Of a stretch of DNA of 64,000 nt, positions 12,247 to 64,000 are shown piece by piece. The notes under the pieces are model-generated. The model had not been told where the DNA came from, made no database searches, and saw only the letters and a list, made by a program, of their open reading frames with translations. This DNA is from Blasia pusilla (lineage: Eukaryota): positions 31,434,001 to 31,498,000 of the forward strand of contig CM114271.1 in the NCBI GenBank assembly GCA_050084515.1. Reading direction: 5' to 3'. The position numbers and the translations under genes are program-made. Numbering within the stretch: position 1 is the stretch's first letter; every line of letters starts with the position of its first letter.

Positions 12247-12248
<2 letters not shown>

Positions 12249-12330
<82 letters not shown>
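12249..12330. repeat. (GA)n microsatellite, ~41 units
   Basis: Perfect dinucleotide run. Confidence 0.97.
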
Positions 12331-12342
<12 letters not shown>

Positions 12343-14122: not shown

Positions 14123-14230
14123 TACGTCTCAGTGAGAGAGTGTAGATTGAGTGCCGCATGTTAGTTTGAGTGATTGAGTGATTACTCCCGAGGTTGAGAG
14201 TGATCATGTGAGAGGGGTACGAGTGTCATC

Positions 14231-17663: not shown

Positions 17664-18147
17664 TCGTGCGTCATGATACATATGTGAGTCATATATCGAG
17701 TCATATAGGTTACCAAATTTTTTTTAAATTAATAGGTCGTGATACACGAGTCATATATTGAGACATGAAGGTCACCTAAAAGTTAGTCATGGTGGTCATT
17801 TGAGTCATATTGATTTCTTTGGTTTGTATGAATGATTGTGTTCTTAAGTCATAAAATATAAATGAGTCATATAGAGGACTCAGATTTTTCTGAACTGACG
17901 GATGATGATTATGTCATAAAATACCATTGAGTCATATTGATCAGTTTGATTTGAAAAAATGACATAAGTTGGACATATATGACTCTTGTAAATGACTCAA
18001 TTCCTTTGATATGACTTGAGACTTAGTATCATGTATGACAGTTTACATTACATGATGTTCATCATCTCCTGGAGATTAGGGGAAGATACTTGAAGTATGT
18101 CATTCAAGTAGGATACGATGCCCCCTCTACAAAACCCTTCCCTGTCT

Positions 18148-18374
18148 CAAACTTACAACATTGAATGAAGAAAGACAAGAAAGATCCAATAGAGAATACC
18201 TTCTATTTAGTAGCTAGTTATACTCCTACTAGCAAGTTTCAGATTGAAGGAGAGTGAGCACAAACTTACAACATTGAATGAAGAAAGAGAAGAAAGAAAA
18301 TCCAATAGAGAATACCTTCTATTTAGTAGTTAGTTCTACTCCTACTAACGAGATTCACCTTGAAACAGAGTGAG
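18148..18374. repeat. ~113-bp tandem duplication inside the CACTA remnant
   Basis: caaacttacaacattgaatgaagaaaga...tccaatagagaataccttctatttagtag occurs at 18148 and 18261. Confidence 0.85.
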
Positions 18375-18614
18375 AAGGGACATGATTTAATCTAAAACAT
18401 TGGGAAGAAGTAAGAAAATAGCTAGATAGAAATATAAGGGCATGCATATATTCATAGAAATGATTTACAAAATGGCCCATTGTTTATCGCAAAGATAACT
18501 TCATGTAGACTAATTCCTAGTGTTGGTATGGTGTCAAAATTGCATGTGAAACAAAATATCAGCAAGTATTACTAACTAAACTGCAACTACAACTAGAGGG
18601 ATGCTCTAATGTAC

Positions 18615-18892
18615 AACTTTCTTCAAGTTCATTTCAAGCCAGAGAATTAAACCCCCAAGAGCATCATCCAAGGTGTATTGAGGTGGCAAGTCATGCTCAT
18701 TTGGCTACCACAACTTATGATCCAAAAAAGCAAGATGGACTGTCTTGAGTTCCACTTGCACTATTCCCAAAGGAATATCACTTCCCTGAAACTTGTCTCG
18801 TCCACTCAAACCCCTCACCACACCGTTTCCCAATATTGTCCTTCTAAGCTTCGGTTTTGTGATGTGAACTTCATCTCCCACTTGAAGCTACA
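18615..18892 (-). pseudogene. CACTA TnpA/TNP1-like C-terminal exon remnant
   Basis: Translates to LQVGDEVHI...ILGNGVV...DIPLGIVQVELKTV...LW*PNEHDLPPQYTLDDALGGLILW, resembling the En/Spm TNP1 C-terminal pattern (T-L-x-D-A-x-G-x-x-I-L-W). Confidence 0.55.
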
Positions 18893-18905
18893 AACAGAAG
18901 ATGGA

Positions 18906-21900: not shown

Positions 21901-22745
21901 AACATCAACCTGTCCTTGAGCAACTGAAATGCTCGCTCCTGCTCATCCCCCCAGTGCCACTCATGATCCACCTTGGTCAACAAGGTCAGCGGCTTCACAA
22001 TCGAACTGAATCCCTTGACGTTTCGCGGATAGAAGTTCGCCAATCCCATGAATGCGCAAACACAGCTCACATCTATTGGGCGTGGAATGCGTGAGATAGC
22101 CTCTACCTTTGTCTACTGAAGACCAAGGCCCCTTGGGTATATCGTATGACCCAAGTACTCAATTTGGTCGTAGAAGAACTTATACTTACCTGGATGTAGC
22201 TTCAGCCCATGTAATTGCAATCATCGAGATACCTTCTCTAGATGTCGCTCATGCTCCTCAACAGTGGCGCTAAAGACTACGATGTCATCAATATATCACC
22301 TAGCAAAATCCAGACTAGCCAAGATCCTATCCATGACCTTGTAAAACTCAGCCGGGGCGTTCTTTAACTCAAATGGTAAGGACCGCCACTCGTAAAAACA
22401 ATCCTTCCCGTGAGGATCGATGCCCCAAAATGCGGTCTTCTGCCTGTCCTCCAATCTGATAGGTAGTTGATGGTATCCGGCTCGCAAATCCAATGAACTG
22501 AAGACCTTTGCATGACGAATCGCATCAAAGATCTCCTAAGGGATGGGCATGGTATACCTATCAGCCTGCCATGAATCTGACGTGGACGGCCCGAGCATCC
22601 GCTCTAAGGGCAGGTCCATCACCTCCTCTGCAATCACCTCTGAACGTGTCAGGCAACTCCAACTCCTCGTCCCCCAATGGGACCACCTGGTGTACGATCT
22701 CTAGGCCCACCCTGACCGGCTACTTGCTCTAGTGCCCTCTCTAGC
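18906..22745 (-). mobile_element. Ty3/Gypsy copy 2 (decayed, internally deleted): RT, RNase H, integrase, PHD and 3' LTR
   Basis: RT LDLRAGYHQL...YIDDI, RNase H FQLHTD...TNHQPLKWL, integrase H-x4-H...CMVC / WSLDFAGPLP, and PHD at 19865-20005. PPT at 19672-19685 and LTR at 18906-19543. Gag and pre-protease fragments (22565-22745) are fused directly to RT. Confidence 0.9.
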
Positions 22746-27678: not shown

Positions 27679-30600
27679 ATGGCGGACAAGGACAAGAAGA
27701 AACTGAAGGTCATTCTCAAGCTTCCCAAGTCTCATCAGAAATTTCCAGCAACAGCACCTTTACAAGGGGGAACACAGTCTGGAGCGAATTCGTCTGCCCC
27801 TGCTTTTTCAACCCCTTCTCATTTCTCAGCATCTCAAGATCACCGCAAAATTGTGCAATCTCATCATGGGGCTGTTGCATCATCCTTGGGGCTGCTGGCA
27901 CAGTCCGCTTCTGGGGCTTTCAACTCCTCTGTACGATCTACTTCCACCTCCGTATCAGGTCCGTCTCCGGCACCACTGGCCCATGTCTCATCCCCCAATC
28001 ACCCTCTCACACCACCTAAGAAGAGGAAGTTCAAGACTGTAGAGCAGAGCGGAGCTTTGGGGGTCGGAGCGTTAGTGGTTGGTTCTGGTGGTGTTAGCGA
28101 GGTTGTTGCAGCTGGCAAGGATGAGGGCATTAAGTCTGCAGGAGCAGCAACAGCGGCAGCAGTGGGAGGAGCTTCTTCCCCTGCGCCGCTGCCACCACCG
28201 GTCAAGAAATCTCACAAGGTGTGTATTCAACAATATAGTGTTTCACTCTTGCTGTAACGGTTTACCTGTTCGCCTAATTTAATAGCACAATCTGTAATAA
28301 CCTTTCTCGGTATACTTTTTAAAGCCCTACTTCAAGTCATTGTTCTGGAGCCGGAGTGTAACTCCACTTCCTTAACATGTTAACGAGAGCGAATTGTGAG
28401 GTACGTGGTATCAGTCACCTGTAGACTGTTGATAGACTCGTCAAGGACATCTTTGTCTGGTAGTTGGTAAGCATCTGAGGCCTTAGTTTCTCTAAAGGGA
28501 GTTCCAGGTCAATAAGTTCCGTCTTCGTGTAACTGTTGATTAGGTTTTGGACATTGTTGCACGGCTTGGGAGCCCGGGCACGGATTTCTCACTTTGAGGA
28601 GCAACATAGTCAACCTTCTGGCGGCCGCGTGACTCATATCTGGAATTATTTTGCAGAAGCAAGTCAAACCGGAGACCAAAATTGATGCACCACCACCTAA
28701 TGTACTTCCAGGTATGATGCAAAAAGTCCGATATCAAAAGATATTTATCTTTTCGTCTCTTGAAATGAGGAGCTATTCTTAATTTTGCGGCCTCATTCAT
28801 TTGGGGATTGATGGACAGGCTCATCGGCATATCTTCATGTTTCTTCCCAGCCTCTATCCAAAGTGCTTCTGGAAGGTGTCCTCGACAAATTGCAAAAGTA
28901 TGTCCACACAATCTTATTGTGCTAGTTATGGAGATGTGCTATGATGATTCACCCAGTGTCTGTGAGTTGTCTTCCCAATGTGTAAATTATGGGACTTTTG
29001 ATCTGGTTATTTTTGGTGAAATGTTACAGTCCGGTACTGGCAACATTGCAGTTGCCTCCTTGGTACCTGAATCATCTTGAAATTGGGCTCAGGGCTCTTT
29101 CTAGGAGCTCGAGTCTGCTGTCTGTTTGCACGCGTTTGGCATTGGACATGGAGCTGATATAATTGACATGCCATGGTACAGGAAAGACACATATGGGGTG
29201 TTTGCTGAACCTGTGGATGCTACCCAGGTGATCGCTGTGAATTGTTTGAGTTTGTTGAGGTGCATTCCATTAGCTTATTATGGTCCATATTTGATTAGTT
29301 TTAGTGTGGAAGTTGTTTGTACTACCTTACAATATTGGATATTCCTGCTGAAAGTGTGCCACTTCTCCAATTCTAACCTTAAAAATGTCGTGGTCACCAG
29401 CTACTTCGTTTCTCTCTGCTGATTTTGATGTGGTGTCTCCAGGTTCCAGATTATTATGACGTGATCAAGGACCCTATGGATTTTGGTACCATGAGGAAAA
29501 AAATAAACAAGGGCTCGTATGGGACAATAGAAAGTTTTGAGGTTTGCTCTCTCTCTCTCTCTCTCTCTCTGAGGTGATGGGGAAAACCTGGACCCAAAGA
29601 AGACCCGTAAAGCAGGCCAAATCTTGGACGAAAAAGGTTCAAGAGATTGTGCAAGCTCCCAGCAGGGCCTGAACTGTGGGAGCAAGATGAGACAGCATTC
29701 GTGGATACCATAACCAAAGCAGTAGGCAAACGCTCACAGCAGAACAGCATGGAGGAAGCCATGAAAATGTCTGACCTCTCTCTCTTGATGGTATATCCCT
29801 AGAAGTCAGAACTGAAGAACTATTTGCGGGGAACCCCTTGCTTGGGAACCCGGCTCAAGTTCAAGTTCAAAACGGGCGCAATCCCCTTGAACCATAAGAA
29901 AAGCAGGATGGGAACACAACTAAACTCTTGCGCCTTGTGTGACGATGGGGACGAAACCTCTAGTCATTACTTGGTCTCCTGCGCAAAATTCACAACACAC
30001 AGAGCAAGAGCATATGCTGATATTGCTAAGCTGGTAGCACCAGAATTGTTCAACACATTCAGTAGCCTTGATTCATTGCCCAAAGCTGCTGCACTGGTAA
30101 GTAATGTCTATTGGGGATCCCAATCAGGTAAAGTAGATTGTGTGGTGAAGAGTTTCTTGGTTGACACTTGGAAGCTGCGCACAAACACGTTATTTGGTCA
30201 GCACTCACACTATATGAGAGTGTCTCCCTCCTCTCATATGGTACCTTCTTCACTTGCTTCTCTCTCTACACCCATCCCAGTCTCAAGCACCGTCCAACCA
30301 GGGCGCAGGGTCTATGGTCGCAAGGCTACGACAGGCACTACTTAATGAGTACAGTCTCTCTCTCTCTGTGTGTGCACCGTCCAATCAGGGCGGGGGTCTA
30401 TGGTCGCAAGGCTACGACAGGCACTACTTAATGAGTACAGTCTCTCTCTCTCGCACAGTCTCTCGCCCAAGATGCGGTCATACCAGGGCTACTACACGAG
30501 ATCCCATCAGAACTCTGCAGTTAAAGCACCGTCCAACCAGGGCGCGGGGTCTATGATCGCAAGGCTGCAACAGGCACTACTTAATGAGTACAGTCTCTCT

Positions 30601-33600
30601 CGCCCAAAGCTGCTGCACTGGTAAGTAATGTCTATTGGGGATCCCAATCAGGTAAAGTAGATGTGTGGTGAAGAGTTTTTTGGTTGACACTTGGAAGCTC
30701 CGCACCAACACGTTGTTTGGTCAGCACTCACACTATATGATAGTGTCTTCCTCCACTAGTATGGTACTTCCCTCACTTCTTCCTCTCTCTACACCCATCC
30801 CAGTCTCAAGCACCGTCAACCAGGGCACGGGGTCTATGGTCGCAAGGCCACGACAGACACTACTTAATGAGTACAGTCTTGACTGGAGAGTTCAAGCACC
30901 GTCCAACCAGGGCGTGTGGTCTACAGTCGCAAGGCTATGATGGGCACTACTTAGTGAGTACAGTCTCTTGACTGGAGAAAAAGCTCCACCTGGTAACACC
31001 AGAATTGTTCAATTTTATTGTAGCCTGGATTCATTGCCCAAAGCTGCTGCACTGGTAAGTAATGTTAATTGGGGATGCCAATCAGGTAAGGTAGATGGTG
31101 TGGTGAAGAGCTTCCTGGTTGATACTTGGAAGCTCCGCACATTGTGTGGTCAGCACTCACAAAATATGAGAGTGTCTCCCTCATATGGTACCTTCTCACT
31201 TCTTCCTCTCTCTATACCCATCCCAGTCTCATGCACTATCCAACCAGGGCGCAGGGTCTATGGGTGCAAGGCTACAACAGGCACTACTTAATGAGTGCAG
31301 TCTCTCTTGACTGGATATCCTGAACAAGCAGAACGGAAGAACTATTTGTGGGGTACCTGTTGCTCGGGAACCTGGCTTCCAAAGTTTGAGTTCAGGATGA
31401 GGGCAATCCCCATGAACCACAAGAAAAGCAGGACTGGAACACAACTAAATTTTTGCACCTTGTGTGATGATGGGAATGAAACTTCCTGCCATTTCTTGGT
31501 CTCCTGCACAAAATTCATAGCACTGAGAGCAAGAGCATATGCCTAACATTGCCAAGTGGCTAACACCAGAACTGTTCAAGACATTCTGTAGCCTAGATTC
31601 ACTGCTCAAAGCTGCTGCACAGGGAAGTCGTGTGTATTGGGTACCCTAATCAGGTAAAGTATGGAGTGTTGTAAAGAGCTTCCTGGCTGACTCTAAGAAG
31701 CTTGGCACCAACACTTTGTATGGTCAGCACTCCAACTAAATGAGAGTGTCTCCCTCCTCTCATATGGTACCTTCTTCGCTTCCTCCCTTCTTTACACCTA
31801 TCCCAGTCTCTAGCTCTGTCCAACCAGAGTGTGGGGTCTATGGTCACAAGGTCACGACAGGCACTAGTTAATGAGTACAGTCTCTCTGTATTGGGGACCC
31901 AAATTAGGTAAAGTAGATGGTGTTGTAAAGAGGTTCCAAAAGTCAACTAGGAAGCTCTTCACAACACCATATACTTTACCTCCAACATTCTGTATGTTCA
32001 GCACGGACACTACATCAAAGGCTCTTTTCTCATACTCTCTGCATTTCTTCTTCTCGTGGCACCCATCCCAGTCTGTCCAACCAGGGCATGGGGTGTATGG
32101 TCGTGAGGCTATGCCACGCACTACTCAGTGAAACAGTCTGTCTCTCACTTTGTACCTTCGCCACTTCTCTCCCTCTGTGCACCCATGCCAGTCTCTAGCA
32201 CTGTCATATCAGGGTGTTGGGTGTTTCGTTGCAAGGCTATGACAGATATCTTTTAACGAGGACTGGCTTGCTTGTGATGATGGGGATGAAACCTCTAGAC
32301 ACTACCTGTGTAAATCTCACAACACAGAGTAACAGCTTATGCTGAAATTTCCAGGCTGGTAAGGATAAGATCTACCCAATGAGGATAGTTTCAGTTGCAG
32401 CAAAGTCAGTGCAAGCTTGGGATGTTTTCACCTAATGGAATCATATCTCAGGTGAAAGGAAATGTGACATACCACCAGAACTCTAATCCTTCAATGCTAT
32501 ACTCTACTCTTCTAAAGTCTGGTGCCCAGTGCCAAAGGAATGGCCCAAGATTCTCCACAAACTCTGTGGCAATGCTTGGGAATTTTGGAAAACGACTCCT
32601 CATGATACACTAATGGCTAGATTTGGTGTGGTACCAAAGGATATTCATTGCACAAAAAAATATGATCACATTCCTCCTTCACGTCTTGGTTACCATGAAG
32701 GATGACCCCAATGTCCTCTCTGCAATAGCCCTCAAAGCATCCTTGGAATGCTGCTACCAAAATAACAAATCATTACCACAGCTGCACAGAATGGCTCTGA
32801 AAATGTGGCATCAATTCATGATGTGTCAAGAAGGCTCTGTTAGAGGAGCTGTGCAAGACTCACACAGTTGGGATAAGCACAAAAGCCTTAGGGAAGGAGT
32901 TGCAGTAAGTCTTAGTCTTCTATTGAAAGGATGTGCAAAATTACCACTCTTTCATGAACACTAGAGAGATTGCATCTGTGTGCCTATCAGATAGAGTCCT
33001 GACTGTCCAAAATGTGGCCATTCTACAGGCTGATATATATCTAATATGTGGCAATGCAATGCGCTACAATGGACCAGACACGATATATTACAAGCAGGTA
33101 ATGTGTGAAAGGTTTTAGGCTGGGATGCTGATGATGTTAACCTTTCATGCATGCTGCATTTTGATAGCTTTATTTTGGTTCCTCACAGGATCTTGGTTTG
33201 TCCAGGCACGGGCTATCAAGGATATGGCTCGCAGGGCACTGGAAAGTATTAGAAGTCAGCTTGCAGGGGAAATTCGGAAACCTGTATCACACAAGAAGAA
33301 ACCACCTCCGCCCAAGAAACCTCACTCCAAGAAACCAACTCCAAGCAAAGTGCGGTTTGATGTTGCAGGTTCAGACTTTGCCTCAGGTGCAACACTGGCT
33401 GGGGATGGAGAGGTCGGGGGATGGTCTAATTCTACTGTGGATGCGGGGAAGGCTAAGAAAGGGGCATCAATGGAGAAGCTGGTGGGCATGGGTGAGGATT
33501 CTGAAAGTGCGTGGGCCTTCCAAACTGGTCCTACTGAAGTCAAAGTTGATGCACAAGACGAGCCCTCAGGTATATTCTTGTCAGCTTGTTTGTTGAGTTG

Positions 33601-40900: not shown

Positions 40901-41449
40901 ACAAAGTCCTGTGGGGAACGTCGACCTATCTGATATCCGAGCAGGAGGATGGGCGGGCGAGAGGGAGTGCTTGAGATTAAGCTTCGTAATGTTTGCCAAG
41001 AAATTTTAGGTTGTGAGACTGATCGTTTCTTCGTGCCTCTTTTACTGGGCACTCACGGACAAGGATCGACCCGAGAGCCGCTTGAGGATCAGTGTTCAAT
41101 CTACCAGAGTGTACTTTGACTTCAAGCGATTGTGCAGCGCGAACTTATTAAGAAATGTTCTGCTGGAGCGAGGGTAGTATGGTGACCTTCGTCGACAGTG
41201 GTAATTTCTGACGAGTATGAGAAGTAAAGCGTTGTCGCTTTAGCTTGTGCGCCTGTGTGTGATGGTGAATTCTCCAGGGGATGCTAGGATGGGTTTTCGT
41301 TAGGAAGTAAAAGAACGATTACGACGTTGTGACGATCGGTTCCCAGGGGTAGCCTTTGTTGCCGGAGAAGATAGTGTCGTGTTGCAGGTGGGAAAGGAGC
41401 TGGAGGTCTTGGGATGTGATTTTCGGTCTAATCTTTTGGTCGGAGTGTG

Positions 41450-42592
41450 ATGCAGAGAGAGGCAAGTGGTAGAGATATGGACGCCGAAATATGGAAGCAT
41501 TTGCCGGACGAGTTATTGGAACCCATTCTTGGACGCTTGCCATGGTGGAGCAACCTGGCAATGAGACTTGTATGCAGATCATGGAACAGGCTGCTCCGCG
41601 GCTTGGAATTCTTGAGGAACACCAGGCCACCTTCTGACAGCGGACGACATCCTTGTTGGATCTCTCGAAGCAGGGATGCCAATTACGCCATCCGAGATTG
41701 GACAAGAAACAAAAGCAGCACGTTATCGAACTTGCCAGCCACAGACCCACCGTTTCGAGTGGTTGCTGCCGCTGGTGGCCTTCTTCTGATGGTAAATGAC
41801 ATCCAGCCTTCGAAAATGATCAGCATTATTGCTAACCCATTGAATGGAAGCCGAAAAGAGTTACCTCCTGTTCCGGAACTCGGTGACTCGTGCATGTGCA
41901 AAAGTCTAGGAATGGTGGAGGACAAGAAGACGAACACACACAAGATAACAAAGGTGGTCTATAGTGAGGTTGCCAGCTTTTCGGGCGTGACCGCGCAAGA
42001 AGCGATCTATGTCTTCGATTTGAAACGGGACTCCTGGGAGATGGCGTACAAGACGCTGAGACCACATGATGAGTACCGAGCTATCATAAAAGCGGTTTTC
42101 TTGCAAAATGATTTGTACATTCTGACTGCGATGCCATCGTCACATGAGGAGCGATGGCTTTACCGTGTGTTCAAGGTGCTACCCACTCACTGGGACGAAA
42201 TTGCTCCAGATTTTTCGTCCAACCATTCTCCCTCCGAACATCTGACAAATGTGCACTTGTTCTGCCATCGCCGAGGTCTCTTCTTGGTGGGAGACAGGAG
42301 AGTGTTGAATTCCTCCACTGTGCGCATTTGGAAGCTAAACCCCGCCATGACGGCATGGGAGATGGCTTTCGTGATGCCAGATGAACTGCTGCTGCGGCTT
42401 TACGTTCCACGCCGAGGGATTCGCTTCAAGGTTTACATGGAGGGGGATTACGCTTGTTTTAGTGGGGATTTCCGAGACACGATCATCACGTGTGATATCC
42501 TCTCAGGGGTATGGAGCTTGAGCACCGGAAGTTACAAGTTTGTTGGCGACTCGGAGTTTCTCCTTGAACCGAGACTAGAAATTGTTTTGTAG
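41450..42592 (+). CDS. Intronless F-box protein with a beta-propeller (FBA/kelch-like) C-terminus
   Basis: F-box MDAEIWKHLPDELLEPILGRLP...RLVCRSWN, then VVAAAGGLL...IIANPLNGSRKELPP, VFDLKRDSW and terminal EPRL, all typical of plant F-box families. Confidence 0.88.
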   Translation: MQREASGRDMDAEIWKHLPDELLEPILGRLPWWSNLAMRLVCRSWNRLLRGLEFLRNTRPPSDSGRHPCWISRSRDANYAIRDWTRNKSSTLSNLPATDPPFRVVAAAGGLLLMVNDIQPSKMISIIANPLNGSRKELPPVPELGDSCMCKSLGMVEDKKTNTHKITKVVYSEVASFSGVTAQEAIYVFDLKRDSWEMAYKTLRPHDEYRAIIKAVFLQNDLYILTAMPSSHEERWLYRVFKVLPTHWDEIAPDFSSNHSPSEHLTNVHLFCHRRGLFLVGDRRVLNSSTVRIWKLNPAMTAWEMAFVMPDELLLRLYVPRRGIRFKVYMEGDYACFSGDFRDTIITCDILSGVWSLSTGSYKFVGDSEFLLEPRLEIVL

Positions 42593-48060: not shown

Positions 48061-51000
48061 TTATGGCCTTGTCCACTTTGAAGTAGTTCTCTCAGAATTT
48101 CTCGCCACTCCACTAGAAGAGAGGTCACTGCGTTCTGCCTCAACAAGGTCCCGCAAGTCTTCAAGATCAATGCTCATTGACTTCATCGCTGCCGTAAGGT
48201 TATCCAAAAGCCTGTCCTTTTGTGCTTCAACCCAGTCTTGAATTTCCACAGAGTTGCGAATCTCCTGGAGGGAGCACTTGGGTGCCAAAGTTGCATGCCA
48301 TCTCTTGAAATCAGCAGTCACCTCACTCAATCTGCACAATGCGTCAAATTCACAATCCAGACACTTAGTCCATGTGGACTTTCACATCCCAGCTCTAGAA
48401 TCATCATGGAGAAGAATTGCTGCAAAGACCTTGGCCACATATAAATAGATGTCATGAAAAAATCTGCATATCTGCTGAGAACTTGGGGAACAAACGAAAG
48501 CCATCTGAGGTCTTCAAATATACCACAATACCTTTGGACAGGCACTCCAGTTTGTTATTAGTAACCCAAAACATTCAAGTCTGGTCTAGGAGATACAAAT
48601 CATCTCGTGATGTGAAAAAGGCACCTAGTTTATTACAGCCATAGAGGTGAAATAAGAGTTGTGGTGACGCAACTAACCTGTCTAAAATTTTCCGCATGTT
48701 TTTCCTCTCACTTGGATGATAATAAACATCAATCACACCTTCCTTCCGTTGAACTATATCTTCCACTCTTCCAAACTTTCCACACCTCTGAAGGATGAAA
48801 TTCTCAGATGCCTCAAAGCCAACATTTGAAAGTCTGACAACAGTTGTCACGATTGGCTCTCCTGTGGTGATGCGGCACCAGCGACCTCCCAGGTAAACCC
48901 TGCCAGCTGCCAATGCGCTCTCTCGAGCCTCATCTGTCTGATAGGTACATAAGTGGTAAATAAATTTGTCAGATAATAACACATACAAGTAAATAAGCTC
49001 GAGTAGTGTTCCCACTTCCAGATCAAAACCAAATCCTTCTGGGCACCTTCAAGGTTGATGTAGGAAGGTAAAGTTCATACACATCAGCATCTAGGCTAAC
49101 AGACACAGACGGATTACATACCACTGGGCATATGCACAGCTCTCTTAAATCTTATAAGCTCCATGGGATTCTCTCCTGAAATGAAATTCCGGGACAGCTG
49201 AGTTTGTTCACACCAAAATCTATCATTTAAACTTCTCTTTACACATTAACCTTCAAGGTTGATGTAAGAAGGTAAAGTTCATACACATCAGCAGCTAGGC
49301 TGAATGTCCTTTAAACTTCTTTTCATACAACTTCAAATCGGAGCTATGGAGAGTGAAAACATTTTATTGCTTTGTTTAGACAGTTTTCTTAACAAAGCCT
49401 AGAATGTCATGCATGAGATTTGGATAAACCAAATCCTACATGGTAGGTTATGTAAAATACAGTTAGTATTTTACATAACCTACCATGTAAAATACTAACT
49501 GCACCTCAGTATTTGTAGGGCCCTGGACTTTTATGTCATGAAAAGTTACTTTGAACTCAGTTTTCTCAGCCACTATACCACTTCAGATTTGCAAGGACTT
49601 CTAAAATAGGAGTAACTTTGATTGCAGATGTGTGAAATATGTACCTTAAATTCCACCTGAGCTGAGTAAGTAGCACCCTCTTCACGAGCCAATTCAGACC
49701 GGGCAATTTCTCCATGTGCTGACAGCATCTTTTCTATGGCACTTATGGGCATTGGATACGGCAAACCCTCAACAGCAACAAAATGAGATCCTTTAGAAGA
49801 AGTTGGGCGAACGCTGCGATCGTTACTTACTGGGCCATCCATTTGTCTAGGGCGATTAGGAAGAGTACTTCGGATCCCATTCACAGGTCTGCTACTTGAG
49901 AAAATTCTCTTCGATGGCTCTGCTATGGGATTTCGGACACTTGTAGGTCTGCTATCATACCTCCTGGGACCAGAGCATGGCTCTGTTATCACTGTTGAAC
50001 CCTTGATGAAAACCTTCTCTTTCCGAAGGGCTTTAGCTAATGCTTCAGGAGTCTGCAAATAAACAGAAGTGCCCATGTTACATAACTAAGATGATTACCC
50101 TTGATGTTTTCGGACGACCACACAGGTGCTTGTGAGGCAGTCAAAGTTTAAAAAGAGTGTCGCACCCCAAACCCCAATTGAAATTCTAGTGTCAAATCAA
50201 ATGAATTACACACTGACTGAGTTACTCCCTATCCGAAGGGCAACACCTTGAATATTCATGAAATCACAATAACTTAAAAAGACATTCCTGATTACATCTG
50301 GTATGAGAAAGTTCAAAGTAAGAGATAGTCTCTGGAGACCCTAAACAACTACAAACATGATTGTGGCAAGCTATAGTGCTTCTCTACAGACTAATCAATT
50401 AGCTCATTCCGAACAGAAAAGGGCTCGAGAGACTGCTACTCCCACTTGAACCATTTTCCATAAGCAGCTAAAAGAATTAATTTGCTAGGCACATCAAACC
50501 CCATTATTCCAGTGACACACATGAATGGAGACCTGTGTTGATACTTCAAATTTGTACTTCTGGTCTAGAAAATGTTAATACTGCACAGGTAAATGTGTGT
50601 GGAAAACGCACCGAAAAGTCCACAAAGCCATACGTGAATCGAAGACCTGAACCCTTCGGCTGCATAGCCTGTGCCCTGACGATCTCACCACAATCTTCAA
50701 ATGCTGCTCGGAGATCCACCTCAGTGGCAGAGAGGGGTAGGAAGCGGATAAAAAGCCCATGGCTCTCCAACACACTCACTGTTGACGAACCTGAGAATTT
50801 ACCATTAGTTGATCCTGATCCTGTGGCAACCTCTTGCTCTACATCTGATGCCTCCTCGTAGTCATCAGCTACAAGGTCAGAATCCTCCTCTTCGTCCAAG
50901 TCAGTATCGTAACTGTCAAAAGTCACTGGAGGAGACCTACCAACATGATCTGGACTTTGTCTGAGTGGCCCCCGCTTCGAGTCATTTTGAGAATCCTGTC

Positions 51001-52471
51001 TGGGATTTCCGAAATTTTGGAGGCGTCTCCAAGTGCTTGTGTCATTTGCAATCTCACCAAGACTGGAATTCGCCTTTCCAGAATCAGTGTGAAATTCATC
51101 GGAACCAAGCTGCAATTCTCCATTATTCTCAAATGTATCCGAGCTAGCTTTCAGTTCCACTCCTGCTGCTGAGATATCGCCCTGTTCCGAGTTTAAAGCT
51201 AACTTCACCTGCTCCTCTCTAACTTCTGGTGTTGCACCTGAGTCTGCTAGCAAATTCAGATCCTGCTGAAAACTGGAAGGTGCTGTACTGATACTAGATT
51301 TCCAGTTTGTTGTCAACTCGTCTACAATGTCTTTGACTATCACACGACTACCTCCGGTCTCTTTGAGAATTGTGGTGAGGCTGGGCCACTTTCCTTCATG
51401 GTCATCCTTGTGCCTGCAAACAGGCAATCCGACTTCAGAAACAGAGAAGGCGACCTTCACAAAAAAGAGACCTGGGTACCATCACCATCACGTGATTGAA
51501 ACTTTCCATCCAGATTCTCCACATCTGTGCGTGCACAGCCATACAATCAGCGACTGGGAATGAGGAGTAAACTGCTCCACCAGCTTGAGCGCTATATACT
51601 GTGAATACACCATGAATGTTCCAAATGACAAGTGGGATCTCACGAAGGGTACATACTTTCGGATAAAATTCTCTACAAGTGTGTATCTCTCTGCTCTTGA
51701 CAGCCGCTCTCCTCTCTTCTTCGGCAACTCTGCAGATTCTTCCAAAGCTGCAGCATGTGCAACGAATCTTGTATGCCTGGCATATGTTCTATTCTGATGC
51801 ACTGGCAATCAGATCAGGACGAGTGGGCGTTATTCAGTGCACTGAGAAATCGACGAAATGGACATTGCCAGGTTTCTTGAAACGACTACAGCCCGAGTCT
51901 GAGAAATTCATGGGAAGGCAAAAAAGGAATGACCTTCAGAGAAACGTGAATTCCACCGGTGCGATATTGTTATGAGACAGCAAACACATGCCGGTGTTCT
52001 ATATAAAAGACTCCTATCATGAAGAGCTGTGAATACAGAGACTAGGGGATTTTTAAAGCACTAGAGGTCGATCCCGCTAAAAGGAAATCAACCACACTCC
52101 ACAAAACTTCTGACGATTGACTTTCCAAACGTATGACAGCTTCATCTCGTGAAAGGAACAATCTCCTGAGCCGCGAACGCCCATGTTATAAACCAGAAAT
52201 AATGCCATGAGTTGGTAAGCTGAGAATAATTTGAAAGCGCATTTCAGCGACTGCGATTGAATTCGGAGAAACAGAGGTACCATATATCTCCATCTCACAT
52301 TGTAATTAGCTATTCCATACCAGCATTGAAGGGTACGATTCTTCGCAGAGAACACCTACCCACAGGTTCGAAGGCTGGCTGCGTCCATGTGCGAGAAACG
52401 GACACTGAGCTCAGGGAGTGTAGCCTGCGGAGGCCAGCAAAACTATGAGCCCATGCTCGAGAAACAGCCAT
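48061..52471 (-). CDS. Putative organelle-targeted nucleic-acid-binding protein: At3g52170-like HTH domain plus three RRM-like domains (~665 aa, 6 exons)
   Basis: GT-AG exons 52471-52360, 51801-51657, 51413-50612, 50052-49645, 48937-48678 and 48331-48061 join in frame (1998 nt). N-terminus is R/S/A-rich. Contains RLSRAERYTLVENFIRKHK..GKWPSLTTILKETGGSRVIVKDIVDEL and RNP motifs LFIRFLP...YGFVDF, VAVEGLP...AQVEF and VRLSNV. Confidence 0.8.
49437..49501. repeat. Two overlapping perfect inverted repeats in an intron
   Basis: 24-bp arms at 49437-49460/49466-49489 and 17-bp arms at 49460-49476/49485-49501. Confidence 0.9.
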
Positions 52472-56029: not shown

Positions 56030-57447
56030 ACATGAGAAAGTTGGAGGTCTAGATGTAACCAAAGGCCGTGGAGCATGTGGTCTATTAGGTGGACAAGGTG
56101 GTGGATATGCCCATGGAGGAGATAGAGGCCCACAAGCTAGAGAGGTTGAGGGAGACCTTAGTTAAGGGGTTAGGATGGTCGCCAAGTTAGAGCAATGGCA
56201 CCAACAGATTCCAACGATGGCACTACGATTTCTTTGATTTCACATTAATGGCATCTACATCATATGGAGCAAGTAAGAGCACATATTATCCCAGATGAAT
56301 GTATGGGGCTACACAAATTGAAGAAATAATTGTGGTTACATGGGGATAAGTAGCATAGTTGGATCAAAAGTTAGAGATAGTCAATAGACAGACGAGACTC
56401 CCTTAGTCATTTACATTTCTCCGTACAATGAAGACTTCATCGATGGTTTCCAATCAAACTACTTAGAAGTTGGATGTCGGTGGTGTATAGACATGACGAG
56501 TGATGGATAAGATGAGAACTTTGATACCTATTACTGATACTCAAAAGAAGCTCCTGCCAAGTATGTTGTTGGTGCAGCCAGAACCATGTAATGTATCATA
56601 GACTACATCCATAATTTTCTTCCTAAGATATTATGATATTAAAAGGCATGTCCACCAAGTTTTTTTTATTGGTTGCCATGCTATATCTAGTCATGTAGAT
56701 GATATTACTACTTCATATTTGGAGGTAGTAATACCCTTAGAGCCCATGCTCGAGATGTCTACTTTTGGGTCATGGCATGCCATGATTGATAGGCTGGAAA
56801 ATATTGACTGGACTTGTTAAAGAGTCAGCCATGGTTGCACATGAAGTGGTGTTGCTAGATAACCAATGTGATGTTGTTAGTTGGGTTCCTCTGATAGGTC
56901 CAGTTTATTGTTTACAACATGTGTTTTTGGGATGCAACCGTTCATGCTAAGGAAGGCAGATTTTATATATGACACATTTGCTGTTCATATCCCAACAGAG
57001 ATGGGTGTCTTGAAGAGCATATATTTCCATGTAGAAGATGTTCCTTTTGGGAGCTCAATTAAGAAGCTCTAAAAATATTTTGATGAGCATATGCGAACGG
57101 CTTGGAATGAGGCCTTTTTATCAAGTTGAGAGAGGTCAAAGGAGCACAAGGTTTTAAGCAATGCTATGTTGTCATCCTTGGACACCACATTCATTGTGTG
57201 ACAATTTGTGGAGGAGGGTTTAAGAGTGTTGGATGTCTTTGGAGGGACCAACATTAGGTTGGCTACGGTGCTATAAGCGAGTATTTGTTTATACCAATAC
57301 TTGTATGTGGAACGAGGTGAAACTAATATGCAAGTATCACTTGAATAGGTAGCTTATTTGCGACTATAATTTTGGAAATTGTATCAACAAATGCAAGGTT
57401 ATTAGAGTTCCTTGCTATCTGAGATAGGATCTGGACCAGATGGGTAC
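56030..57447 (+). mobile_element. Ty3/Gypsy copy 3 (old, heavily decayed): gag end, protease and DNMT3-like N-terminal part
   Basis: Aligns with 15515-15730 and 16340-16470. 57211-57447 translates to EEGLRVLDVFGGTNIRLATVL*...YQYLYVE...QGY*SSL...DLDQMGTI. Confidence 0.75.
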
Positions 57448-58280
57448 TATCGTGAGCATACACATTGTTGTTACCAAACACACACAAAAACACTCATGAT
57501 CCCATGCTAATTCATAGCATCCAAACAACGAGACAAGAAGTACCAAAATATCTCCAATAAAATAAGATCCAATCTCTCTCACAACACCACAGTTCTCACA
57601 TGTGTGCACTCTCACATGTCTCTCTCAATGTCAAACCAAACCCACTCTCATAATGAGAGGCTTGGGTTAAACTCACAAGGCAAGGAACCATAGCTCCGCC
57701 GCCTCGTGCCAAGAGGTTCAACAAAGAGAGAATAAACTCTCAAGCTCTCTCTCTTTGAAGTATACCCCTCCCCTCTCCCAAGCTCTCTCTCCATGGTGAC
57801 CTATGCTCCCAAGTCACCTCCTTGGCTCTTGACCTGATGTAGGAGGTCAAGGGGCACTTACCAAAAAAATAAAGTCGATCCACAAGACACATCCTCAAGA
57901 AATTCCCCGACGTAGCAAACGAAACGGCAACCCAAAGTCTCTGGTCGGCGGCTATCGCCACTCCTCATCCACCCCAATTACAACCGTAGGCAAAGGACAA
58001 GAGGCTACTACCATCCACCGGGCCTCTACGCCCCGAGCCATATACTCAAAATGGTACTTACCTAAAGTATTAAGTTCCTCAATATGGCTCCAAATGAGCC
58101 AAAACGAAGGGGAAATCTGCTCTCTCAGGTTTCGCGGGGCCTCAGCAGGTCATCCTCGACCTTCTAAGCCTGTCCTCCACAACTCATGAAGGCGCTCTAC
58201 TAGATCTCACCGATCTATCCTAAAAGATGTCATACTTGTCGTACGCATAGATATTGTTACACAACATACATTATTGTCAC

Positions 58281-58506
<226 letters not shown>

Positions 58507-58834
58507 CATGCTAACTCATGGCATCCAAACAACGAGATAATAAGTACCAAAATATCTCCAATTTCCCCCTAGTTGGTGGTTAGGTCCCTCTAACTCGAGA
58601 TAGCCATCTATCCCTACCTACCATGACATACATCTCTCGCACGCTAAGAGCAAGAAGGCCGGATGCTCATGTGGCCCCATCGTTAGTCGCCTTCTTGTCA
58701 TCCATGTCACAGACACAAGTCGGAATGTAGAACTACCTACTCTATGTGCACCACGGGCATAACCACACAACATACAACGCAAGCCTATAACAACTACAGC
58801 TAAGCTCAGATCAACTGCACTGTCAATGTTAGTA

Positions 58835-58975
58835 TACATCTAGGATACATCCATCTTCCCTTAGGAACCCTAGTGAGAGGCGGCGTCAAACATGCCATAG
58901 GTCATCCTCTCGAACACCCATTACAGACTAGCATAATGCTTGCACCACGGGCGGAACCACACAACATACACCGGA
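58835..58975 (-). pseudogene. PHD finger (C4HC3) at the integrase C-terminus
   Basis: RCMLCGSARGASIMLVCNGCSRG*PMACLTPPLTRVPKGRWMYPRC. Copy 2 supplies GWHMAC and WMCPRC, giving a complete C4HC3 consensus. Confidence 0.85.
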
Positions 58976-61900
58976 AGCCTGCAAGAACTACCGCTAAGCT
59001 TGGATCAACTATACCATCAATGTTTGGAAGATGACATAGCGCAAAGTTACGCACATGGTCCTTCCAAACCATACCATCGCGTCCCTCCAATAAGAGAACA
59101 CCGGATGGCAAAACCTCTCACACTCTCAAGATGGTGCGCCTTGCAGTCACATCCAACGTCGTGGGTAGCGTCTGCTGCAAGTAGACATAGTCTCCCTGAT
59201 GAAACCTCCGGAGTAGGTCGATAACCACCTCCTTGAATAGTCGCATACCTCAATGTATCCCGATGTTGCGCAATCGCCAAGTTCTCAAATGGCATGGGCA
59301 TCACTCTCCCAAAAAACTCAGGCCTCTGAGAACATGCTCGCATTCATACATCAGGGTCATCAAGGTTCAACATCTCACCAAAATCTCAAGGAATGGCCAT
59401 AGGTAAATCTGGCTCTCGGCCATAAAGCAACAAGTATGGTGAGAAAAACGCTAAGGATGCCTGCCTATTGGATCTATATCCCATTGCCAACCACATAAAC
59501 TGAAGGTCTCAATCTCCTAGATGACCTCTCTGCAAGCCATACTTGCGTAGTCCTATCTTCACCATCTACACAACCCGCTCCGCTAGTCCATGCGCCTCAG
59601 GATGATCTTGCGAAGTAGTGCGGTGGTCGATCAGTGCCTGATCACACAAGGCCTGAAACTCCCCACAGAACTCTGTACCTTGGTCTGTCAACACCTCAGT
59701 TGGTACGCCGTAATGACCCAACACTCGATCTAGGAAGGCATCCGCTACTCCCTCACTCGCTTTGTCAGGCAATGCAACCAACTCCATCCACTTCAATAGG
59801 TGCTCGACCATCACCAACACATAACGACTATGGTGCTCCGTCAAAGGCAAAGGTCCTGCAAAATCCAAACTCCATCTATAACCTAAACCCATGATCGGAA
59901 GTGAATGCAACTGTGGAGTCAAAACATTGAATGATGCTCGGACTCGATCACACACCATGCATCTGGCAACAAACTGCTGAACATCAGTCTGCATGCCTTG
60001 CCACCAATACTGAATCTGGAGCAAGTTGTACGTCCGCTTCACTCCAAAATGACCGAACTCCTCGTGGCCATGATGCACCAAACGTGCTCTCTGCGAAGGA
60101 TGAGGCACTACACGCACTCTACCATCCTCCCACACTCGCAACACATGTGTGCCCTCCCACCGGAACTGTCTGGCTCGCTGTAGGATCTGATCCCGCTCTC
60201 TACTACCCACTAAGCTTGCAACGTTGCCAGTACGCAGATACTCCAAGACCACTCCATCTTCGTGAATATCTTGGCCACCTGTCGTCTCCTCACCAACCTC
60301 TGGATCTAAGGACTCTCCATCAGACCTCGCCATCGAAGTCTCAGAAATCTGACTCTCCATAGCCAACAAGCCCAAATAGGCTGACGCATGCCATCCGGGC
60401 ACCAACTCCTCATCACTCTCACCATGCCAACGAGCTTCAGTCGCATTTCGCTGACTTGCGCATGGGTTACGGCTCAAACCATTTGCATTGTGGTTGAGCA
60501 TCCCAAGTTTATGCACCACTTGGAAGTCATACACCTTCAACAAAAGAGCCCACCTCACAAGCTTCCCTGTAAGCTTGTTGGACTCCATCAACCACTTAAG
60601 TGGCTGATGATCAATAATGATGGTAAAGGGATTGTCGAATAGATAACATCTAAAATGTGCAACAGCCCACACTACAGCCAAGCACTCACCCTCATACGAG
60701 CTATACTTTGCCTCTGCAACGTTGTTCGAGCGACCAGCGTAAGCCACCACGGACTCTCCACCATCATCCTCATGCTGGGTGAGCACGGCTCCAAGCCCCA
60801 ACATGCCTAAATCGGTATGCAACTGGAAAGGACGCCCCTTGATCGGTCTCCTCAATATGGGTACGGACGTCAATTTGTCCTTGAGCATCTGAAATGCTCT
60901 CTCCTCCTCATCCCCCCAGTGCCACTCTTGATCCACCTTGGTCAGCAAGGTTAGCGGCTTTGCAATTGAAGTGAAACCCTTGACGTACCGTCAATAGAAG
61001 CTCGCCAATCCTATGAATGCATGAACTCGACTCATATCTGTAGGGCATGGAATGCGTGAAATAGCCTCTACCTTCGTTTGTTGCATACCAAGGCCCCTTG
61101 GATATATCGTATCATCCAAGTACTCAGTCTAGTCGTAGAAGAACTTGCATTTGCCTAGATATAGCTTTAACCTATGTAACCGCAATTGTCAAAACACCTC
61201 CTCTAGATGTCGCTCATGCTCCTCAACCGTGGCACTTAAGACTGCGATGTCATCAATATAACACCTAGAAAAATCCAAACATGCCAAGATCCTATCCATG
61301 ACCCTCTGAAACTCAACCGTGGCGTTCTTTAACCCGAATGGTAAGAATCGCCACTGGTACAAACAATCCTTTCCGTGAGGATTGATGCCCCAAAATGCCG
61401 TCTTTTGCCTGTCCTCCAATGTGATAGGCAACAGGTGGTATTTGGCTTGCAAATCCAATGAACTGAAGACCTTTGCATGCCCAATCGCATCAAAGATCTC
61501 CGCAGGGGTGGGCATGGCATATTTATTGGACTTTCTCTTCCAATTGATAGGTCAGTAATCTCCACACATTCGCCTATCTGTCCAGTTGCCATGCACATCC
61601 TTCTTGGCGGACAAGACAGTGGTAGATGCATACTCTCCATGCGACATCTCCACTAGTCCTGCTCCAACCAAGTCTTGGCTCCTACTCTGAATTAGAGCCC
61701 TTTCCATATTATTGTACCTATAGGGTCGTCGGAAGATCGGCGTATCACTCGACAACTCAATGCGGATCCATGGACCCTTCATCATATCCAAATCATGCAT
61801 ACTAAATGCAAAAAAACTCCTATAACTCCTAAGGAATTGGTGTATCCGACACCGCTCTCCTCCTGTCAACTTAGGGCCCATATCTAGCTCCCAAGTCTCC

Positions 61901-62214
61901 ATCGTGACTACGGTAGGACTTTCCGGCGTAGATGTTAGCGGTTGCTATGGTGCAACCTCGTTTGGGACAATAGAACTCTCATCTCCACATGCAGTACCCG
62001 GAACCACACTCGATGTTGTGGCTATCATCTCCTGGCGTACCTGCAAAACATCCCAAGAAGTCGAAGGATGTCTCTCCCGATCACCCTTGGTGTGTCGATC
62101 TCCTCAAGTATCGCCCCCAACCACTGCCTCATTCGTCTTGGTAGGCATGGGGCTCACCAACGCAACTTTTGTGAACTGTCACATCCTCAAACGACGTTGC
62201 TCAGCTACTCCTAA

Positions 62215-63165
62215 GCTAAAAAATCCATGACAAGCAGTTTAAGTCCATCGTCTGACCCAAGACATGACGCCGTGATGCCTCTCATAATGACGATACGACC
62301 GGCACTCCTGTGGAGAATCCCATCGCTCGCTCTCACTCATCGGCATTGGGCTCCACCAACCTCTGTACTTGGTCATCCGAAACCAAGCCAGGTTCGGCCT
62401 CCTTGAATGCATAGGCAGCGGGAAAACTCACCAATGTGGGAAAGGCTGCCCGTAGCCTGCCAGTCCTGTTGACCATAATCAATGGCAGTCAATCATGTAG
62501 CCTCACTGCCTAGGATCGACGGCCCGGATCTAATATAGAATCCACCAACAAATCGGAGGGGTGCTCCACTCTCGCATATGCCCTCCGCAACACCTCGTGT
62601 GGTTCCAAGTTGGTCCACCAAAGACGCGGGCGATGTGATTGTGAACCCACACTGGCCGCATCCAACAAAAATGTCGGGCCGATCCATGCGCGCACTTGAT
62701 GTGCACTTGTCACCACACAGGACCTCGAATCGCCCAAAATCAGTATATTCTCCGAATGTATGCTCAAGGATGAGATTGATGCTCTTGCAAGTGTCGCAAG
62801 ATCCGCATCATCTTCCAAAATAACCTAGACCAAGAATCAGCTAATCCGTTACCTTGTCCAGCACATGATTGGCCTTGACATAGCCAACCAGCAATGACCA
62901 AGTCTATGGTCCCTACCCGCTCCAAGTCCTGCACCCCCAACAATGAAATGTCCCTCGGTAGGGAACTTTGGTAGCCTTGAATGGCGGACGCATACGACGC
63001 GTCGGGAAAACGGAGGCGTAACTCCGCCACATGGTGAAGTGAAGCGCGCCTCGCAACATCATCAATCTCCACATATAGGTACTGCTACACGCACACTCCA
63101 GCCTACAAAAGAGCAGCTAACCCAATGTTGATCCCTCCAAAGAGATCCAACACCCGAATACCCTT
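62215..63165 (-). pseudogene. DNMT3-like cytosine-5 DNA methyltransferase domain within the Gypsy polyprotein
   Basis: Motifs in canonical order: I IRVLDLFGGI, II YLYVEID, III DI, IV IDLVIAGWLCQG (PC to LC), RLFW, VI YI.ENI, VIII LLDAASVGSQSHRPRLWWTNL, IX E*ERAMGF, X RRHVLGQTMD. Confidence 0.88.
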
Positions 63166-64000
63166 CTCTAGGATGCATCACACAATCCGAGTGGTGTCCA
63201 AAGGGGTCATAGCAGCACTCATGCCTACTTGGGGTGCCTCTAACCCGTCACACTCTGGTGCAAACGTCTCGCTCCACTCGGTCTGCACATGTTCAGTGGC
63301 TAAGCGTCGAAGCTCCTTAGTCGAGCCCCAAAGCGGTACCTCTCTTCCACGGACTGATGCAGCTACCATGACACTCCTCTACATAGAAATGTCAAGAACG
63401 TGAGTATCCTCTGCATGGACATGTCCCTCAATCAAATCACTAGGCCAAGTGATGGCACTGCTAAGTGCTGCTAAGGTCGCCATCTCTCCTGGCCGTCGCT
63501 CGATCACTGCACCTGTGAATCGAACGGGTAATGAGCTAAGGCGCCCATCACCTGACTCCCATCCTGCTCTATAGGATGCTGACTCATCCCAGTAACCTAG
63601 GGAAAATCCCATCGGTTATAACACTGCTCCACCAACCAAGACGTCGTAGGACTCTACATCAGTCACTATCGCCTTGGCTCGCACCACAGACTTATCCATA
63701 GGATCCTCACCATGACCTCTTGTTGGGTGATACTCGCTCCACCCAAGGATATCTGTATCCAAAATGGACAACGCTCCACATCGGCTCTCGTCAAGCCCAA
63801 TCCTCTGAATGACGCTTTTCCCAACATCAAGGATTGCCCTCCTGAATCCAACAAGACGCGTTGCGGACTAAAAGCTCTATCTCCGGGACTCATGAACTGC
63901 AAGATCTCTCCCTGGTTATCCAACAACACAATACCACGAGAAGCCATGGCACTCTCTATCACGGGTCTAGTGGATATCTCCGCCATCCTAGCAGCCGCAG

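Follow-up and report, generated by a model that had tools for sequence, protein, structure and literature searches.

The window analysed here is a stretch of 64,000 nucleotides from Blasia pusilla (GenBank assembly GCA_050084515.1, contig CM114271.1, positions 31,434,001 to 31,498,000 of the forward strand), numbered from its first letter. At 57.5-64.0 kb it holds, on the minus strand, a copy of a Ty3/Gypsy retrotransposon that we call F4, and inside this copy a decayed C5 cytosine DNA methyltransferase (DNMT) domain, apparently of the DNMT3 kind, is placed between the aspartic protease (PR) and the reverse transcriptase (RT). Parts of further copies of the same family (F1 to F3) lie elsewhere in the window, and the coordinates are collected in Table 1. 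A sequence-only reading of this DNA had proposed that a Gypsy lineage of land plants carries its own DNMT3-like enzyme at this place in its polyprotein, and much of what follows bears on that proposal.

Table 1. Features of the retrotransposon copies in the window, with the evidence for each
Feature	Position	Strand	Evidence or remark
F4, aspartic protease, N-terminal part	63732-63998; DSG motif 63837-63854	-	tblastn, 39-47% identity to protease regions of Marchantia and other relatives
F4, decayed DNMT3-like domain	62222-63165	-	translation, PF00145, collinear tblastn with relatives
F4 DNMT, motif I LDLFGGI	63130-63150	-	translation
F4 DNMT, YLYVEID	63061-63081	-	translation
F4 DNMT, motif IV GWLCQG	62872-62889	-	Leu-Cys where Pro-Cys is expected
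F4 DNMT, motif VI, AYI then ENI	~62735-62763; ENI within 62735-62752	-	frameshift between AYI and ENI
F4 DNMT, motif VIII SHRPRLWWTN	62609-62638	-	translation
F4 DNMT, motif IX ERAMGF	62315-62332	-	translation
F4 DNMT, motif X RRHVLGQ	62252-62272	-	translation
F4, in-frame TAG followed by CAA CCG, border of open reading frames (ORFs) 1 and 2	TAG 61945-61947; TAG CAA CCG 61939-61947	-	window sequence and homologous site in relatives
F4, reverse transcriptase, several stops	61000-61944; YIDD 61249-61260	-	PF00078 E 3e-15; tblastn, 55-65% identity to Marchantia proteins
F4, open 474-aa stretch: RNase H, integrase zinc finger, integrase core	59566-60990	-	PF17917 E 4e-32, PF17919 E 7.6e-30, PF17921 E 9e-17, PF00665 E 6e-10
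F4, integrase C-terminal region and terminal PHD finger	58833-59210	-	PF00628 E 1.8e-6, 28.3 bits against a cutoff of 24; tblastn to PHD-bearing relatives
F4, 3' terminal repeats, order B-A-B	57475-58562 (B 58479-58562, A 57559-58478, B 57475-57558)	-	likeness to 3' end of F2
F3, pre-DNMT linker and first ~73 aa of DNMT, motif I LDVFGG	56962-57429	+	tblastn, translation
F2, B-A-B, PHD finger (19851-20048), integrase, RNase H, part of RT	18900-22568	-	blastn, tblastn, PF00628 E 1.6e-9
F1, gag, protease, first ~34 aa of DNMT (17015-17116), then A repeat (17118-17662)	14458-17663	+	tblastn to Marchantia gag-PR-DNMT proteins

Apart from the inserted domain, F4 shows the Ty3/Gypsy Pol order of protease, RT, RNase H (RH) and integrase (IN), the last of the DDE type. 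Pfam profiles recognise RT, RH and IN, and over the span from protease to RNase H, Marchantia proteins are collinear with the window (tblastn, 46-66% identity). Pfam recognised neither the protease nor the gag stretches of the window, so the F4 protease is assigned by alignment to relatives and by its DSG motif. A frameshift near 59211-59215 precedes the C-terminal region of the integrase, and two extra bases at 59211 are present in most DNA reads. No chromodomain was found after the F4 integrase. The two B repeats at the 3' end are 88% alike, and the A repeat between them contains a perfect (AC)109.5 microsatellite at 58284-58502 (Tandem Repeats Finder); the homologous A of F2 is about 400 bp shorter. 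The copy runs past the end of the window, with gag and the 5' repeat outside it.

Translation of the minus strand with stops written as X gives a methyltransferase domain whose motifs stand in the non-permuted order I-IV-VI-VIII-IX-X, just as the sequence-only reading had listed them, and the domain is, as it also stated, collinear with a protease upstream and an RT downstream. The profile search that had been proposed as a check gave a PF00145 match above the cutoff for the N-terminal half (62764-63165; E 1.4e-7, 31.7 bits against 22). The C-terminal half alone has no Pfam match at E ≤ 0.1 and aligns at 42-59% identity with the C-terminal halves of intact relatives (tblastn). In those relatives PCQ and ENV are invariant in one family alignment and the Arg-rich motif VIII is invariant or nearly so, and F4 does not keep such catalytic motifs in an open frame: it reads Leu-Cys in motif IV and ENI in motif VI, and carries seven in-frame stops, three in the N-terminal and four in the C-terminal half. 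The earlier account of the breaks, stops and one frameshift, is right in kind and needs a correction in number, as one frameshift (two leftover bases, 62753-62754) lies inside the domain and another marks its C-terminal end near 62222. Copy F4 is dead, as had been said. Over its whole length we count 23 in-frame stops and four frameshifts; one of the stops is the conserved one between the ORFs described below and 22 are disabling. Relatives have Arg, Trp or Gln opposite 12 of these 22, which is compatible with, though not strong evidence of, C-to-T decay. There are 7 stops in the 314 codons of the DNMT and 10 in the 1003 codons of the stretch of tail, RT, RH and IN, counts too small for a claim that the domain decays faster.

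Several comparisons were used to place the enzyme among known methyltransferases. With the intact relative P0013 as query, all 29 sequences of solved structures found at E ≤ 0.01 in the PDB were DNMT3A, 3B or 3C. A family profile built from 20 members, which returned 58 rows at E ≤ 10, ranked DNMT3A/B/C first (E 3e-26 to 2e-20), ahead of the DRM enzymes of tobacco and Arabidopsis (3e-15 to 8e-13), M.HhaI (5e-9) and DNMT2 (1e-7), and neither DNMT1 nor a chromomethylase occurs among these 58 rows. An AlphaFold model of the relative P0172 (mean predicted local distance difference test score 80.5, predicted template modeling (TM) score 0.79, residues 1-328 confident) likewise has DNMT3A/B/C chains as its best matches (E 8e-20, target TM score 0.79-0.81). 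The order of motifs is unrearranged, in contrast to that of DRM. No PWWP or ADD domain was found by Pfam in the window or in the polyproteins of the relatives, and a PHD finger follows the integrase instead; according to the available sections of one paper, these companion domains are also missing from many non-animal DNMT3s (PMC12344493). The rankings by profile and predicted fold support the assignment to a DNMT3-like C5 methyltransferase that the sequence-only reading had made; the trees described below hold family members only.

The other copies in the window carry the same arrangement as far as they extend. The sequence-only reading had pointed to the start of the same domain at two further places, and both were recovered, in F1 at 17015-17116 on the plus strand (34 aa, 53% identity, E 5e-6, with gag and protease upstream) and in F3 at 57214-57426, also on the plus strand (73 aa, 49% identity, E 9e-14). 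Since F1 keeps ~34 aa from the start of the DNMT and then passes directly into an A repeat (17118-17662, an inverted match to 19541-18993 at 80.7%), it is an internally deleted derivative of a DNMT-bearing copy. Its 5' A repeat was not detected in 12000-14700, where the local alignment scored 26 and shuffled sequences reached 29. F3 abuts the 3' end of F4 and is most simply explained by a nested insertion. F2, which matches F4 at 84% identity along 2.7 kb (blastn), ends in repeats of the same kind (B 18900-19031 and 19540-19671, 91% alike, flanking A 19032-19539) and is cut off within the RT, so that it does not reach the DNMT position. DNMT sequence is thus present in all three window copies that span the interval between protease and RT (F1, F3 and F4). 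Between F1 and F2, which lie tail to tail, there is a 1.2-kb spacer (17663-18900) with a 111-bp tandem duplication (18148-18258 = 18261-18374, 89%).

To place these copies within a family, relatives were collected from protein and metagenome sequences. A HMMER search with the broken N-terminal half of F4 returned 937 proteins at E ≤ 0.001, 205 of them at E ≤ 1e-10, and word-indexed searches with the domain of an intact relative gave 60 near-length and 95 longer proteins. When domain order was scored by phmmer among 303 collected proteins, two arrangements emerged: the DNMT follows a protease and/or precedes an RT in 59, and lies between RNase H and integrase in 111. It stands alone, mostly in fragments, in 132, and one protein scored for integrase only. 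Named members with the first order are streptophytes. They include 12 entries of the liverwort Marchantia polymorpha, for example MARPO_0091s0058 (PR-DNMT-RT-RH), Mp_2g26090 (DNMT-RT-RH) and Mp_4g09160, where single gene models run through DNMT-RT-RH with the protease upstream, or from gag to DNMT; Klebsormidium nitens KFL_009030040, which reads PR-DNMT-RT-RH-IN; and a protein of Closterium. Close DNMT matches occur as well in Calypogeia fissa and the moss Sphagnum jensenii, in proteins too short for the order to be scored. Named members with the second order, RT-RH-DNMT-IN, are green algae (Scenedesmus, Haematococcus, Monoraphidium and Cymbomonas). The protein P0235 is a single ORF of 2352 aa reading CCHC-PR-DNMT-RT-RH-IN, and in the metagenome locus L062 the DNMT also lies within a continuous element ORF.

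A few entries stand apart. One Marchantia entry is named 'DNA (cytosine-5...'. P0163, a member of 455 aa on a 2.4-kb contig of a metagenome-assembled genome (MAG), is labelled 'DNA cytosine methyltransferase [Candidatus Obscuribacterales bacterium]' and probably represents a piece of a plant or algal transposon binned in error. Two distant relatives of the domain, P0065 and P0087, are in 1400-aa proteins that also contain a Dam-type adenine methyltransferase (PF05869); P0087 has an additional weak RT match just under the Pfam cutoff, and the two are reminiscent of DIRS-like elements with two methyltransferases.

The same association is seen in Joint Genome Institute metagenome contigs, in which 354 pattern matches were reduced to 303 by tblastn and the best 80 of these 303 loci were analysed. 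The DNMT is followed on the same strand by RT or RNase H in 54 of the best 80, stands alone in 24 (mostly contigs under 10 kb) and is followed by an integrase in two. Most of these relatives are decayed, with an ORF of at least 900 aa in only three of the 80. Nei-Gojobori comparison of diverged intact copies gives dN/dS values of 0.09-0.24 for the DNMT, the cleanest pair being L062 and L073 (dN 0.032, dS 0.259, ratio 0.13), and close copies give 0.62-0.88, which we read as neutral decay after insertion. The DNMT is therefore integral to the element lineage and passed down within it, and is no nested insertion, a conclusion in keeping with the earlier view of a family trait rather than a one-off capture; that the lineage is present in land plants is likewise borne out by the named proteins of Marchantia polymorpha, Calypogeia fissa and Sphagnum jensenii.

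Trees of the DNMT domain were built from 95 and 56 rows, all family members, with IQ-TREE in a short search with the Shimodaira-Hasegawa-like approximate likelihood ratio test (SH-aLRT) as sole support value. In these the window domain falls in a clade with the Marchantia rows (SH-aLRT 99) and the algal RT-RH-DNMT-IN type forms a DNMT clade of its own (SH-aLRT 99-100).

The relatives also indicate how the DNMT is divided from the rest of Pol. In all six loci in which the DNMT is open, the frame continues ~100-130 aa beyond the domain, meets one stop and then enters the RT in the same frame. A sequence anchor for this site was found in 42 of 82 sequences (the other 40 are short contigs or were missed by the regular expression), and 37 of the 42, the window included, have a stop followed by CAA (TAG in 25, TAA in 12); four of the remainder have a double stop and one has Tyr. 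The loci being related copies, what these counts measure is conservation inside one family, not independent events. Examples are L002:12905, L013:4509, L062:5083 and L071:4661, and the in-frame stop is kept in the divergent loci L062 (TAG CAG TTA), L071 (TAG CAA TCA) and L073. Such contexts resemble what we take to be the stop-CAR-YYA read-through signal of plant viruses. After the stop we found no conserved RNA structure, only a weak hairpin 50 nt downstream (-4.8 kcal/mol, one compensatory pair). Many gene models of Marchantia and the metagenomes end 10-170 aa beyond the DNMT and so fit an ORF1 of gag, PR and DNMT. With the conserved in-frame stop between DNMT and RT, the DNMT would belong to the gag-protease ORF, and the stop-CAA is a candidate site of programmed read-through.

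Two further traits mark the family. At the position after the integrase where chromoviruses have a chromodomain, F4 and F2 have a PHD finger (PF00628), a feature common to the algal RT-RH-DNMT-IN elements. PHD fingers in retrotransposons as such are already known (PMC6673714, in the passages available). The terminal repeats are split: the arrangement A-coding-B-A-B is complete in the related loci L019 and L061, and in L019 A 7569-7905 corresponds to 16322-16658 (90.8%) and B 16203-16317 to 16658-16772 (93.9%). B-A-B is seen at both 3' ends in the window (F2 and F4), while the 5' A of F4 lies off the window and that of F1 was not found. A plain pair of long terminal repeats was found neither in the window, where the 5' end of F4 is missing, nor in the related loci with split repeats.

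Reads of the same species, from three RNA runs and one whole-genome shotgun run, were placed on 58600-64000 at ≥90% likeness. The RNA runs contributed 1197, 1436 and 1241 reads, of which only 9, 4 and 3 are at least 99% alike; nearly all of the transcripts thus stem from other copies. The RNA is strongly one-sided, with first mates mostly on the plus strand (depth 154.6 against 0.3 in run X20), which, given the usual stranded chemistry, means that it is the sense strand of the element. Genomic depth reaches 200-600 per direction over protease and RT/IN from ~1% of the run and points to a high-copy family in this species.

The closest described system is found in de Mendoza et al. 2018 (Nat Commun 9:1341, PMC5890265; here and below as given in the sections of the paper available to us), who reported retrotransposons with a DNMT from Symbiodinium and, as an independent case, KnitGypsy-Dnmt3 from K. 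nitens. The latter has a non-rearranged Dnmt3-type domain in a Gypsy Pol ORF with Ka/Ks < 0.2, and has a repeat structure described as 'the same as that of a DIRS retrotransposon'; the DNMTs of the K. nitens retrotransposons were placed as Dnmt3-related and form a more divergent clade than the Dnmt3 of the host. Later papers, in the passages available, speak of 'streptophytes (Gypsy-DNMT3)' with only the 2018 work as source. We infer that KFL_009030040 is a copy of KnitGypsy-Dnmt3. Both this kind and the window family have the Dnmt3-type domain upstream of RT in a Gypsy polyprotein of the order PR-DNMT-RT-RH-IN, their RT-RH-IN parts align contiguously (42% over 895 aa), both have DIRS-like A-coding-B-A-B repeats (here complete in L019 and L061, and seen as B-A-B in the window), and the DNMT is under purifying selection in both, at Ka/Ks < 0.2 in theirs and 0.09-0.24 in ours. 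The differences are that land plants (Marchantia, Calypogeia and Sphagnum) are among the hosts here, that a conserved in-frame stop-CAA separates DNMT from RT in the window and its clade while a single ORF makes up the K. nitens model, and that the window family has a PHD finger whereas Pfam finds none in KFL_009030040. Neither a PHD finger nor read-through is mentioned in the main text of PMC5890265.

Other systems are more distant. The green-algal RT-RH-DNMT-IN-PHD Gypsy elements, of which we found no printed description, share the DNMT3-like domain (35-42% identity), RT-RH-IN (34-43%) and the C-terminal PHD finger with the window family, but differ in having the DNMT between RNase H and integrase and in their separate DNMT clade. 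SymbioDIRS-Dnmt3 of Symbiodinium also bears a Dnmt3-type domain in Pol, one that methylates CG de novo in yeast, but has a DIRS backbone with a tyrosine recombinase and a dinoflagellate host, and is held to be an independent acquisition (PMC5890265). Host DNMT3A/3B/3C and plant DNMT3/DRM enzymes are the best matches in catalytic sequence and fold, with the unpermuted motifs setting the window domain apart from DRM; unlike host DNMT3, it is embedded in a polyprotein without adjoining PWWP or ADD, and the only reader-like module is the PHD finger past the integrase.

Our search of the full-text literature, which left subscription journals, Repbase/REXdb and supplements outside its reach, turned up no DNMT-bearing retrotransposon from any land plant, bryophytes included, and neither the DNMT/RT stop-CAA nor a post-integrase PHD finger of such elements. 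The bryophyte sequences are already in public annotations, unremarked. On novelty the sequence-only reading goes too far: the element is of the same kind as the charophyte KnitGypsy-Dnmt3, with the same domain order. The window element is the described streptophyte Gypsy-DNMT3 kind extended to land plants and not a new class, and common descent with the K. nitens element is likely.

The most reasonable explanation of these data is that 57.5-64.0 kb is a dead copy of a Gypsy-DNMT3 element with the order (gag)-PR-DNMT3-like-stop-RT-RH-IN-PHD and B-A-B repeats, in which the DNMT is an integral part, and to this, together with the mode of expression and action proposed for live members, we give a probability of roughly 85%. 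In such members ORF1 (gag-PR-DNMT) would be the main translation product, and RT-RH-IN-PHD would be made by occasional read-through of the stop-CAA. The DNMT would then be produced at levels like those of Gag, within the precursor that forms the particle, might travel with the particle, and could methylate cytosines of the new complementary DNA (cDNA) or of DNA at the integration site, while the PHD finger of the integrase may steer integration by reading histone tails. Methylation of cDNA or insertion sites was proposed for DIRS elements by de Mendoza et al. (PMC5890265). That methylation of cDNA or self DNA is the actual role of the domain here is a tentative suggestion, to which we give somewhat less than even odds.

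Some observations weigh against this interpretation, in whole or in part, and several of them lend weight to alternatives. No function can be read directly from F4 in its present state, and the domain is stop-free in only 7 of 52 metagenome loci with a full-length DNMT in a single high-scoring segment pair. Read-through would have to be argued from the conservation of the stop, with no conserved RNA structure downstream. Genomic read depth falls to 57-93 per direction over the DNMT, 4-8-fold below the flanking protease and RT/IN, and the drop coincides exactly with the linker-DNMT part (62220-63305). It may reflect faster divergence of the DNMT (the DNA identity of the window to L002 is 64% in the DNMT and 71% in RT-IN) or many copies without the domain, as in F1, and it is the chief observation against a domain common to all members. 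The dip, and an F1 without most of the domain, are what one might expect if a host DNMT3 pseudogene had been captured, or a nested insertion had occurred, in this one copy. We regard such a one-off event as barely tenable: F1 keeps the start of the domain, the DNMT is at the same place in all three informative window copies, continuous ORFs carry it in Marchantia, K. nitens, P0235 and L062, RT or RNase H follows it in the majority of the best metagenome loci (54 of 80), and there is purifying selection between element lineages. An orphan bacterial or viral C5 methyltransferase that merely resembles DNMT3 is also very improbable. One family member does bear a bacterial MAG label ('Candidatus Obscuribacterales', 2.4-kb contig) and our trees include no reference enzymes; yet M.HhaI, M.HaeIII and other bacterial enzymes come far behind DNMT3A/B/C in both the profile and the fold ranking, the named hosts of long contigs are all green plants or algae, and the K. 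nitens copies were placed as Dnmt3-related in the 2018 work (PMC5890265).

Harder to set aside is the notion that the domain is a genuine part of the element with a role other than methylation of cDNA or self DNA, such as methylation of RNA, action on host chromatin against silencing, or a structural or oligomerising part in a Gag-PR-DNMT protein. A Gypsy-borne enzyme of this lineage is not known to be active. The K. nitens domain gave no DNA methylation in yeast, a result its authors called inconclusive as DNMT3B failed too, and RNA methylation has been raised for a DNMT borne by a long interspersed nuclear element (LINE) (PMC5890265); a place on the Gag side of the stop would also suit an abundant particle-associated protein. 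We nevertheless consider such a role unlikely, though far from negligible, because the invariance or near-invariance of PCQ, ENV and the Arg-rich motif VIII in intact members, with low dN/dS, is as expected of a working enzyme, and related DIRS-borne DNMT3 domains methylate CG in yeast (PMC5890265). Independent capture of DNMT3 at the same position by the bryophyte-type and K. nitens elements would account for the weak placement of K. nitens, which joins the PR-DNMT-RT group at SH-aLRT 80 only and on a long branch, and for the Closterium element, which has the same order and falls in a different DNMT clade; capture of DNMTs by retrotransposons is moreover known to recur (PMC5890265). The common insertion point between PR and RT, the common A-coding-B-A-B repeats (for K. 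nitens as described in that paper's available sections) and the contiguous RT-RH-IN alignment make this convergence quite unlikely, and favour one inherited lineage.

A wider reading can be built on the integral DNMT. The algal and streptophyte orders might be two forms of one old Gypsy lineage of green plants with a DNMT3-like domain and a PHD finger, still alive in bryophytes, in which the DNMT would be made at capsid levels from the gag-protease ORF ahead of a leaky stop, packaged, and used to lay 5-methylcytosine on cDNA or insertion sites. Near-identical intact copies are present in Marchantia. We think this reading in full unlikely, if by no means fanciful; it is described nowhere in the papers searched, and if true it would mean that a transposon-encoded de novo methylation activity has contributed to land-plant genomes.

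Plants fight transposons chiefly by cytosine methylation, and a transposon with its own de novo methyltransferase is for that reason a paradox. In green plants it has so far been documented for one alga only, where enzyme activity could not be demonstrated. Marchantia polymorpha is a genetically tractable land plant. With an intact-motif lineage there, and a high-copy transcribed family in the species of the window, the purpose of the enzyme becomes testable, and the conserved stop and the integrase PHD finger offer two handles, on expression level and on chromatin targeting. The ORFs of such elements may also be mistaken for host DNMT3 genes in annotation.

The rest of the window contains host genes and other repeats. 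A single-exon host gene at 41432-42592 (plus strand) encodes an F-box (PF00646) and a KIB1-4 beta-propeller (PF03478) of plant type, with all of its database neighbours in Streptophyta, and 50546-51481 together with ORFs at 48575-50085 (both minus strand) makes up exons of another host gene, one encoding an RNA recognition motif (PF00076, E 3.9e-6). At 29779-32153 there is a cluster of direct repeats of 300-590 bp, 66-88% alike, with ORFs that match zf-RVT weakly and under the cutoff (PF13966, E 4e-4); these are probably 3' ends of a LINE family.

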